A stretch of 64,000 nucleotides of DNA from Octopus vulgaris (taxonomy: Eukaryota), in the NCBI GenBank assembly GCA_951406725.2, contig OX597832.1, forward strand, positions 57,040,001 through 57,104,000. Direction: 5' to 3'. The notes under the pieces are model-generated. The model saw only the letters and a list, made by a program, of their open reading frames with translations, searched no databases and had not been told where the DNA came from. The translations under genes were made by a program, and so were the position numbers. Shown here piece after piece: positions 32,208 through 39,966 of the stretch (the first letter of the stretch is position 1; each line of letters opens with the position of its first letter).

Positions 32208-32243
<36 letters not shown>

Positions 32244-32249
<6 letters not shown>

Positions 32250-32319
32250 CAATATTAAGGAATGGCCTTGATAGGTCATTCAACCCACCTATCAAGGCCA
32301 TTCCTTAATATTGTTGAAT
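32244..32319. repeat. perfect 33-bp hairpin at the edge of a short insertion in (TA)n
   Basis: ATTCAACAATATTAAGGAATGGCCTTGATAGGT-(10 nt)-ACCTATCAAGGCCATTCCTTAATATTGTTGAAT. Confidence 0.85.
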
Positions 32320-32413
32320 GTATATTATATAGTCTGTTGACTATTTTTTCTTTCTCACTGGACCGCTGGTGGCGAAAAAATTTATCTTGAATTTTTTGCT
32401 ACCCTGATATTGA

Positions 32414-33627: not shown

Positions 33628-33900
33628 TTGGTACCTGAATGGAGTGAAAATTTAAAAACTGTTTCTTTCGGTGAGTTTTCTGAAGAAACTGGACCTAGCC
33701 ACAGACTTTCCCAGAAGAGTAAAGCCTTAGACTATTTCTATTTACTTTTTCGAATGAGCCTATTTGAAATCATTACGCTAAACGTAAACAAACCGAAAGA
33801 AAGGATAGTTTGTTATTTCCCACAATCTTAAATGAAATTAAGGCCTATTTTGCCATAAATATTATTATGGGTATCAGAAAGTTACCCAGAATAACAAATT
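33628..33900 (+). pseudogene. piggyBac transposase (PGBD/DDE_Tnp_1_7-like) fragment inside the Helitron
   Basis: FSEETGPSHRLSQKSKALDYFYLLFRMSLFEIIT..., then a frameshift to FPTILNEIKAYFAINIIMGIRKLPRITN. This matches the piggyBac pattern PLDYF.LFF / EIKAFLGL.I.MG...LP.I..YW. Confidence 0.7.
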
Positions 33901-34825
33901 CTATCGTAAAATTTTGTTGTATACCCAATTGAATATTAGCTAATAACCCATTTTCTATAGCGATGTTTGAACAAAATTTTAATAATTTTACAGAAAGTTA
34001 CCCAGAATAACAAATTCTATCGTAAAATTTTGTTGTATACCCAATTGAATATTAGCTAATAACCCATTTTCTATAGCGATGTTTGAACAAAATTTTAATA
34101 ATTTTACAGAAAGTTACCCAGAATAACAAATTCTATCGTAAAATTTTGTTGTATACCCAATTGAATATTAGCTAATAACCCATTTTCTATAGCGATGTTT
34201 GAACAAAATTTTAATAATTTTACAGAAAGTTGCCCAGAATAACAAATTTTATCGTAAAATTTTGTTGTATACCCAATTGAATATTAGCTAATAACCCATT
34301 TTCTATAGCGATGTTTGAACAAGATTTTAATAATTTTACAGAAAGTTACCCAGAATAACAAATTCTATCGTAAAATTTTGTTGTATACCCAATTGAATAT
34401 TAGCTAATAACCCATTTTCTATAGCGATGTTTGAACAAAATTTTAATAATTTTACAGAAAGTTACCCAGAATAACAAATTCTATCGTAAAATTTTGTTGT
34501 ATACCCAATTGAATATTAGCTAATAACCCATTTTCTATAGCGATGTTTGAACAAAATTTTAATAATTTTACAGAAAGTTACCCAGAATAACAAATTCTAT
34601 CGTAAAATTTTGTTGTATACCCAATTGAATATTAGCTAATAACCCATTTTCTATAGCGATGTTTGAACAAAATTTTAATAATTTTACAGAAAGTTACCCA
34701 GAATAACAAATTCTATCGTAAAATTTTGTGTATACCCAATTGAATATTAGCTAATAACCCATTTTCTATAGCGATGTTTGAACAAAATTTTAATAATTTT
34801 ACAGAAAGTTACCCAGAATAACAAA
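33875..34825 (+). repeat. 116-bp tandem repeat, ~8.2 near-identical copies
   Basis: Unit CAGAAAGTTACCCAGAATAACAAATTCTATCG...AATAATTTTA starts at 33875, 33991, 34107, 34223, 34339, 34455, 34571, 34687 and 34802 (partial). Confidence 0.97.
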
Positions 34826-35410
34826 CGAGCCCTTCTGGGTATTAGCGCGCGTCTACGATGAGTCTACGATTTAAAAAACAATTACCATCATATTTTTCCA
34901 TTTTAATGCATTTTTTTCGCTTTTATATAAGGGAAGTAACTCTCTAAAAATATCTACGATGTGTCAACGATTTAAAGAAAAATTTACCTTAATTTTTTTT
35001 CAATTTTTAATGCATTTTTTTGCTACTTTTTGGCTATAACTCTCTAAAAATGCTTATATAGTTATTTCCCTTACAACCCGAGCAACGCCGGGCGATACTG
35101 CTAGTATATATATATATACTAAATATTTAGTATATATATATATATATACATATATATAGTATATATATATATATATATATATAGTGTATATATATATATA
35201 TATAGTGTATATATATATATATATAGTGTAGTGTATATATATATATATTTAGTATATATATATAATATTTATAGCTATGAAACGTACGTAGTGTTTTTAC
35301 TTATTATATTATATATTTATCATTCATTTTATACTTTTTGAGATCTAGTTATAAGTTATATATTAAAAAAAAATTATAATTATAATTATATATATATATA
35401 TATATATATT

Positions 35411-35896
35411 AACGTAAGGTGTACTAGCCATCTGAATGTGGCTAGCCACTGGGGGTGTGTACGAGCCACATTCAGATGGCTAGTACACCTTACGTTGTTG
35501 AGCGGTTACTGTTTATATCTCGTTCAGAGATTTATTATTGTTTTCAGACAGTTTTTCTAAATCAGTGACAGTGGTTGCTGTGAAAAACGTTATATATTTA
35601 TTTGCAGGGGGACTCCTTCATCGAAGACCGGTGCTTACCATGCGTTGACGAGAGGCAATTACCTTGAAACTATAGTCCGTATGTAGTACTTAGGTCTTCG
35701 AGGGAGGATGACCTCCCTTTGCAAATAACACAAGGGCACTGAGATAGTGTCTAAAGTCCATCTGGTGACGTTAATCGCCTGGGGCTAAAAGCATCAGGAA
35801 CACACCACCCCCAGTGGCTAGCCACATTCAGATGGCTAGTACACCTTACGTTGTCGAGCGGTTACTGTTTATATCTCGTTCAGAGATTTATTATTG
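35411..35896 (+). mobile_element. retrozyme-like / non-autonomous Penelope-like element (356-bp period, inverted 5' piece)
   Basis: Direct repeat 35464-35540 / 35820-35896 (period 356). 35411-35457 is an inverted copy of ~35806-35852. Central HHR; flanked by (TA)n. Confidence 0.7.
35640..35682 (+). ncRNA. type-I hammerhead ribozyme motif (UUGACGA variant, GUC site)
   Basis: ATGCG-TTGACGA-GAGG-CAATTA-CCTT-GAAA-CTATAG-TC-CGTAT. Stem I is ATGCG/CGTAT, stem II is GAGG/CCTT and stem III is palindromic ACTATAGT. Predicted cleavage after 35677. Confidence 0.75.
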
Positions 35897-35982
35897 CTTA
35901 TATATATATTGTTATATTGTTATTTATGTATTGCCTTATGTCTATCACTGTTTGAGTTGCATAATAGTGGTTTTATCTCTAA

Positions 35983-36366
35983 CTAGCAGTATCGCCCGGC
36001 GTTGCTCAGGTTTGTAAGGGAAATAACTATAAAGCATTTTTAGAGAGTTACAGCCAAAAAACAGCAAAAAATGGAAAAAAATTATGGTAAATTTTTTTTT
36101 GATAGTTAAAAAAGGTGGAGTTGCGTCCCCTACACAGTTTGTGGTTTGTGTTCCTGATTCTCGACTCCATGTCGAATTTATCGATTTTTTTCAGAACTGG
36201 GGTAACTTTTTAAAATTTTCGCAGCGTTAGTTTTGAATTATGACATTGAGCTATGTGTGTGTCAAGTTTCATCAGAATCGGTTGAAAGCCGTGGTCAGGG
36301 TGAGGGTACAAGCAAACAGACACACAGAAACACGCACAGACAAACTGCCGTTTATATATAGAGAGA
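35983..36366 (-). mobile_element. short non-autonomous Helitron
   Basis: Minus strand A|TCTCTCTATATATAAACGGCAG ... CCTGAGCAACGCCGGGCGATACTGCTAG|T. The 3' ~90 bp are shared with the Helitron ending at 35104. Confidence 0.85.
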
Positions 36367-39704: not shown

Positions 39705-39966
39705 CTTTATTTAAAGCAGCAGAAAATTCAACAAAACCTGAGTTTCCCGTTGCCGTTCATCGGACAGTTTTTGCTAGAATGGAACCGATATGTCGAATTG
39801 ACATATCGGTTCCATTCTAGCAAAAACTGTCTGATGAACGGCAACGGGAAATTCAGAGTAACAGGTTTTGTTGAATTTTCTGCTGCTTTAAATAAAGCAT
39901 ATTACTCTACGACTGGTCTTTGAGTACTCTTTTTTCCACCTTGTTTCACATTTACGTGTTTACTCC

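Follow-up and report, generated by a model that had tools for sequence, protein, structure and literature searches.

The window, a 64,000-nt stretch of the Octopus vulgaris contig OX597832.1 (positions 57,040,001 to 57,104,000 of the forward strand), contains at 35411-35899 one insertion of a non-coding, hammerhead-bearing family of non-LTR retrozymes. Comparison of the window with itself reveals a direct repeat of 80 nt, 35464-35543/35820-35899, with 98% identity and a period of 356, and an inverted copy, 35411-35457 versus 35806-35852, that is 100% complementary over 47 nt. The first-pass annotation had reported both, the former as a 77-bp repeat of the same period (which sits inside the 80-nt repeat) and the latter as a short inverted copy at the 5' edge; it placed the end of the insertion at 35896, and the true end is 35899. 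It also correctly stated that there is no open reading frame (ORF): none of at least 100 aa is found in 35411-35899, where the longest stop-free frame has 49 codons. The locus is composed as follows.

35400..35410, unstranded: left copy of the target-site duplication, 11-12 bp; lies within a TA microsatellite and so carries little information here
35411..35457, minus strand: inverted arm, 47 nt; it stops, 3', at unit position 309, the fixed "no-tail" end
35458..35463, unstranded: filler of 6 nt in the gap between the two arms, at their head-to-head junction
35464..35543, plus strand: final 80 nt of the upstream unit, 5'-truncated, which makes the direct repeat
35544..35899, plus strand: full retrozyme unit of 356 nt, U3.G8 subfamily
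35599..35727, plus strand: long covarying stem with the hammerhead at its tip, which would keep the two cut ends together
35639..35683, plus strand: type I hammerhead (motif and covariation; cut site independently marked by chimeric loci)
35853..35899, plus strand: "tail" of the type known from Penelope-type elements (PLEs), 41-47 nt between two fixed 3' ends (PMC11167929)
35900..35910, unstranded: right copy of the target-site duplication, pairing with the left copy at 35400..35410

The window copy, 1.2 units long, thus consists of the no-tail arm (35411-35457) and a 436-nt tail arm (35464-35899). By analogy with PLEs, the tail at 35853..35899 is likely to be the stretch between two start sites of the reverse transcriptase (RT). 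Li et al. regard as "active" those loci that have two consecutive units with complete hammerheads; the window locus has a single one, so this copy is likely a dead-end product and not a source.

Several other repeats are found in the vicinity. Two copies of another repeat, at 35075-35105 and 35982-36012, have their ends facing the retrozyme and form a 31-nt inverted pair that terminates in a hairpin followed by CTAG, which resembles Helitron 3' ends. A 116-bp tandem array (8.2 copies, 99% identical) occupies 33875-34825. The long near-perfect hairpins at 39719-39883 and 32235-32329 match Rfam miRNA models, but these AT-rich hairpins score below the cut-off and were rejected as real miRNAs; they are likely other head-to-head insertions.

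The hammerhead and its family in the octopus genome

The type I hammerhead with a GUC site and a palindromic stem III, recognized in the first-pass annotation, is indeed present at 35639-35683. Its parts, as read from the sequence, and the outer stems, identified by pairing, all lie on the plus strand.

35639-35644/35678-35683: hammerhead stem I
35645-35651: hammerhead core UUGACGA
35652-35655/35662-35665: hammerhead stem II
35666-35669: hammerhead GAAA
35669-35676: palindrome of stem III, ACUAUAGU
after C35677: predicted hammerhead cut
35599-35612/35714-35727, 35621-35629/35693-35701, and 35631-35635/35685-35689: three outer stems

All three nested outer stems that had been proposed were recovered, the outermost being one base longer than claimed. 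The Rfam search at E≤1 did not report a hammerhead, so its assignment rests on the motif and covariation. The central 135-nt arm folds at a z-score of -7.2, with 0 of 200 shuffles as good, and the monomer folds at -4.9 (linear) or -4.5 (circular). The description of the unit as rod-like applies to this central arm, whereas the whole unit, folded as a circularized monomer, is branched and has 8 hairpins; stem III does not form in the monomer folds. Antisense hammerhead cores were found in 0 of 12 units, which show 7-10 hairpins (other ribozyme classes were checked via Rfam only), and these results, together with the branched fold, do not fit a viroid-like replicon with ribozymes on both strands.

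In the 2.8-Gb genome, the family hammerhead pattern has 1,972 matches, the tail pattern has 1,207 exact matches, and the exact hammerhead of the U3.G8 subfamily has 214; each of the reversed controls gave 0. The monomer search scored 40 of 2,424 candidates. Five clusters were first seen at 59-84% identity and further clusters were seen later, all with units of 353-360 nt. Copies are dispersed, and upstream of a unit stands the tail of the previous one; arrays reach about 3-5 units, and some family loci hold 2-3 or more hammerheads. The type I hammerhead, the non-coding tandem units of this length, and the dispersal with target duplications support the retrozyme-type identity assigned originally. 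The check proposed originally, whether other copies are tandem or circularly permuted, revealed tandem units; the 3' ends are not permuted and fall at two fixed positions. The family also occurs in sequencing runs that carry the labels of three other organisms, with no RNA data set among those listed. In 14 runs presumed to be RNA, 21-35% of the sequence words are present; these are assembled contigs, which give no information on ends, strand, or circles, and no circular or monomer RNA was seen.

Among other members of the family, a subfamily with a GUA cleavage triplet (L484-L513) dominates the 175 matches of one control search. The 119-bp tandem array of six or more copies at L143-L148 (G000:C1:11.168 Mb), built from the retrozyme 3' end without the hammerhead, represents an incipient minisatellite. 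A frame of 30 codons that spans the tail was rejected as coding, as the subfamily differences (alignment A1) look, by eye, mostly non-synonymous.

The RNA fold of the family is under selection. In 28 chosen copies, both partners have changed in 14 of the 42 named pairs, 88.9% of cells are paired (versus 34-51% for slid-partner controls), and RNAalifold detects double changes in 21 of 67 pairs, with these counts reflecting a handful of subfamily events and not 28 independent rows. Stem III and the core pair 3-8 were surveyed in 115 units parsed out of 137 near-full ones, a sample enriched for the subfamily of the window copy. Of these 115 units, 100 have a perfectly palindromic stem III, or 109 if G-U pairs are allowed, in six different sequences; palindromic stem III is a published mark of dimeric hammerheads (PMC4209133). 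The pair 3-8 is U.G in 59 units, C-G in 41, and U-A in 15; one C.A copy, with a nearby deletion, lies outside the parsed set. Among the closest copies, U3 is found in 35 of 36 segments. As for the concern that the UUGACGA core, with U3 opposite G8, may lower activity, U3.G8 characterizes an entire subfamily that has been amplified and is not decay. Because this subfamily carries U3.G8 and such copies are found among the exact-cut chimeras described below, the U3.G8 hammerhead is likely to cleave. A literature search found no kinetics of a U3.G8 hammerhead.

Penelope-type ends and chimeras at the cut site

Copies of the family carry the marks of PLEs, namely, two fixed 3' ends, head-to-head arms, and target duplications. 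Of the 138 arms in 74 loci, which were sampled consecutively along one contig by their tail motif, 67 have the tail and 51 the no-tail end, the two ends being 41-47 nt apart. Among 135 loci there are 59 head-to-head insertions; 51 of them pair one tail with one no-tail end and 2 pair two tails, which differs from free pairing at p = 2e-7, with no-tail/no-tail pairs partly excluded by the selection on the tail motif. Target DNA is AT-rich, and target duplications of 12-16 bp were identified in 20 of the 36 non-TA two-arm loci versus 0 of 267 mismatched pairs. In 20% of two-arm loci, compared to 7% after shuffling, the two arms stop no more than 12 nt apart in unit coordinates. PLEs similarly have a tail on one end, an inverted arm, and a target duplication (PMC8557442, PMC3846280), and in vitro work places their tail between two internal start sites of the RT and shows cutting and extension of both target strands (PMC11167929). 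The initial assignment to the non-LTR retrozymes was correct but overlooked this PLE signature.

A search for copies whose sequence switches directly after GUC returned 60 hits. Eleven of these, representing 7 loci and 4 partner families, join the retrozyme GUC to the first base after the partner's predicted hammerhead cut. The partners are the L046/L052 PLE family (3 loci), a 781-aa family (1 locus), a third PLE family (2 loci), and a PLE-like family (1 locus), in which 12 loci yielded no ORF. As the partner's own triplet is GUA, six of the junctions are pinned to the bond between the retrozyme C17 and partner +1; the seventh (L456) has a 4-nt microhomology. In three chimeric insertions, the junction is present in both arms (a single A is missing from one of the arms); a fourth insertion also spans it but has a deletion. 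Both halves differ among the three L046/L052 chimeras, so these are likely separate events. In the first search, there were 10 cut-site chimera hits versus 942 normal copies, and control positions -2, -1, and +2 yielded 1 break into foreign sequence in 72 inspected hits; 145 further control hits, from the search dominated by the GUA subfamily, are outside these 72.

Two more loci join the cut to LINE sequence, namely L333, with an RVT_1 match (E = 2e-30) downstream, and L336, whose partner has no Pfam match and is presumed to be a LINE. There is a 14-nt insert at the cut in L321 and a complex junction in L314; L327 is without an assigned partner, and the rest of the hits are point changes or small deletions. 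Reciprocal chimeras, with the 5' part of a PLE and the 3' part of a retrozyme, were seen in 0 of 9 hits, the search in subfamily 4 gave 0 of 10, and a relaxed pattern returned 4 known and 5 chance hits. One PLE family (L052:2505-2535, L340-L396) has a hammerhead with U3-A8 and with GCAA replacing GAAA, yet is an exact-cut chimera partner. At about 558-345 on the minus strand of L046 (G000:C4:176.46 Mb), some 215 nt (~215) of foreign sequence lie at or beside the element's own predicted hammerhead cut; this insert may be another ligation fossil.

The chimeras show cut ends joining other RNAs, not self-closure, and are likely a fossil of in vivo cleavage and ligation in the germline. The GCAA of one partner and the microhomology at L456 count against this reading. 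Ribozyme self-ligation is unlikely because the 3' strand of the partner cannot pair with stem I of the retrozyme. A protein ligase would fit, by analogy with the U6/L1 chimeras, which arise by RtcB ligation (PMC6789731).

Template and mechanism of insertion

Given RT starts at 175 or about 220 nt downstream of the cut, a copy longer than this has to run across it. Such crossing is seen in 53 of 118 arms, 8 of which cross at least twice; of the 65 passes that enter the cut site ±3 nt, none stop there (2.1 expected). Genome-wide, 520 copies are continuous through the cut versus 3 that start at +1 (1.8 expected). Consequently, the cleaved linear monomer is not the usual template. Given that the ribozyme is conserved, likely cleaves, and has joinable ends, yet never bounds the copied template, cleavage and ring closure provide the best explanation: the RNA would be cleaved, closed into a circle of ~356 nt, and copied into AT-rich DNA by a borrowed Penelope RT-endonuclease (probability, roughly 0.7). 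A circular-template model has been proposed before (PMC4209133, PMC7229834); RtcB can close monomers of retrozymes into circles in vitro, and the mussel units, of 350-390 nt, occur as circles (PMC7229834).

In the proposed scheme, loci with at least two tandem hammerheads (as in 8 of 118 arms) would be transcribed, and the palindromic stems III would pair as a dimer and release a monomer. Its 2',3'-cyclic-phosphate and 5'-OH ends, held by the long stem, would be joined by an RtcB-type host ligase, as the chimeras suggest, and about 1% of the copies would record wrong joining to cleaved PLE or LINE RNA. Judging from the insertion anatomy, the PLE protein would make a staggered cut of 12-14 bp and prime cDNA from both strands, one per internal start site. 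Each cDNA would extend for a variable distance, through the cut site unstopped, and the two would be joined head to head, an arrangement seen directly in the copies. A bolder reading combines several claims: retrozyme RNAs ending at the cut would have been ligated, in the germline, to cleavage products of Penelope-type families (at least four) and then retrotransposed; the minimal hammerheads of PLEs would be active in vivo; circles of the retrozyme would serve as templates; and the PLE structure of inverted arm plus tail would arise because the two target strands are primed at two different sites on the RNA. Taken as a whole, this reading appears slightly better than an even bet.

The circle was originally deduced from the more-than-monomer length of the insertion. 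A circular template is indeed favored, with reasonable confidence, over uncleaved multimers, but a tandem alone is no proof, as PLEs without any hammerhead (Naiad/Chlamys) leave partial tandems too (PMC8557442). The same observation is in line with an alternative, judged unlikely here, that the PLE copies a linear multimer, either intact or cleaved in part, or else a dimer joined by ligation, whether linear or circular, while the ribozyme mainly trims and monomer circles are a by-product. PLE insertion in vitro proceeds on unprocessed RNA, independently of hammerhead cleavage (PMC11167929); 8 of 9 Xenopus retrozyme dimers did not cleave (bioRxiv 10.64898/2026.07.22.740005). The stop rate is 0.38-0.41 per 120 nt up to 400 nt and then rises, beyond one unit, to 15/24 and 6/9 (p = 0.02), which could reflect finite linear templates or, in an after-the-fact reading, strand displacement after one round. 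At two sites in L007, both 3'-most units differ from both upstream units, a hetero-dimer pattern that suggests a template with two or more dissimilar units and favors the linear alternative; the pooled three-way unit-variant test is neutral (35:25:24, p = 0.27). However, the 5' ends do not pile up at the cut or the unit boundary (6 stops in the boundary bin versus 4.8 expected), and the flank matches in 135 loci look, by eye, like common repeats and not like carried-along source flanks. Further, since 111 of 119 arms have one hammerhead or none, the family would become shorter if copying were purely linear, and the ends are demonstrably joinable, given the chimeras.

Exact junctions could also form without a ligase if the RT, on reaching the 5' terminus of one cleaved RNA, continued at the 3' terminus of that molecule or of a second cleaved one, producing both seamless tandems and chimeras, and the untidy joins at the cut in L321 and L314 would suit such a process. 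This appears improbable: jumps should leave stops at the cut, contrary to the counts given above, and in three insertions the identical chimeric junction is found in both separately primed arms. The U6/L1 analogue, as mentioned above, comes from ligation as well.

Known relatives and the search for a putative mobilizing PLE

The element itself belongs to a known class, the non-LTR retrozymes, whereas the cut-site chimeras are new. The metazoan non-LTR retrozymes (Cervera and de la Peña 2020, PMC7229834; 350-390 bp in the mussel) are similar in that they form non-coding tandem units of 170-400 nt with a type I hammerhead, are dispersed, make long duplications of the target, and coexist with PLEs. 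Circular RNA is described for them, whereas for the octopus family it is predicted; a PLE tail, two-arm pairing, and cut-site chimeras are, as far as the available text of that paper goes, reported only for the octopus family, whose core drifts among C3-G8, U3.G8, and U3-A8. The EN+ PLEs (PMC11167929, PMC8557442, PMC3846280, PMC4209133) share with it the tail at one end, the inverted 5'-truncated arm, partial tandems, AT-rich or microsatellite targets, and the palindromic stem III. The octopus family differs in having duplications of 12-16 bp (8-10 bp in rotifer PLE copies), no ORF, a tail of 41-47 nt (30-40 in PLEs), and a full-size hammerhead with a long covarying stem I, and none of the PLE ends tested matches it in sequence.

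Vertebrate retrozymes, described as non-autonomous PLE derivatives, have likewise been concluded to depend on PLEs and occur mostly as monomers or short arrays (bioRxiv 10.64898/2026.07.22.740005). Their PLE origin has been argued from co-occurrence and pLTR similarity (the same preprint and PMC6765202), in contrast to the octopus case, in which the evidence comes from insertion anatomy and the parental pLTR was not found. In the U6/LINE-1 chimeric retrocopies (Moldovan 2019, PMC6789731), an RNA with a 2',3'-cyclic phosphate is likewise joined 5' of a retroelement RNA and retrotransposed; in octopus, ribozyme cleavage would supply both ends, a PLE is the carrier in most cases, and ligation would be the joining step. 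No prior report of the cephalopod family or of cut-site chimeras was found in the open papers, although the family may appear in supplementary files of PMC7229834, of PMC4209133, or of the bioRxiv preprint; the words "ribozyme" and "hammerhead" are absent from the available text of PMC13282606. The family gives countable genomic evidence and offers a 356-nt minimal substrate for PLE reverse transcription, and the search for cut-site chimeras is a cheap test for any PLE-rich genome that maps active ribozymes, including those with non-canonical cores.

The octopus genome holds young RT/GIY-YIG families. An RT + GIY-YIG ORF between pseudo-LTRs is absent from the window locus and from 155 + 50 family loci, so the element is not an autonomous PLE. 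A 3' region shared with an autonomous PLE was not detected in 30 GIY-YIG loci (best local scores 26-35 versus shuffled maxima of 30-43) or in 10 loci of another PLE family (scores 28-34, without shuffles); 150 of 6,136 GIY-YIG candidates were scored. The chimera partners do not name the mobilizer either, as they come from four different families. Two hammerheads 3.6 kb apart, considered as a pLTR-ORF-pLTR arrangement, turned out to be a duplicated chimera, and four cases at 1.4 kb represent a local duplication. The view that the copies are merely truncated pseudo-LTRs of a coding PLE, or a DNA-level satellite, is hardly credible despite the PLE-type ends, the proposed derivation of vertebrate retrozymes from pLTRs (bioRxiv 10.64898/2026.07.22.740005), and a PLE ORF 1.3 kb upstream of the sister piece L066: this neighbor is a coincidental, separate insertion (39 other copies of that PLE end before the L066 piece), none of the copies in the 155 + 50 loci is continuous with a PLE ORF, as would be expected of the fragments of a long coding PLE envisaged earlier, and the dispersal with target duplications and the upstream tails noted above also speak against it. 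A very young PLE family (L217, L231-L260), in which 108 of 108 scored matches (25,209 candidates) are 99-100% identical, has a minimal U3.G8 hammerhead near its 3' end.
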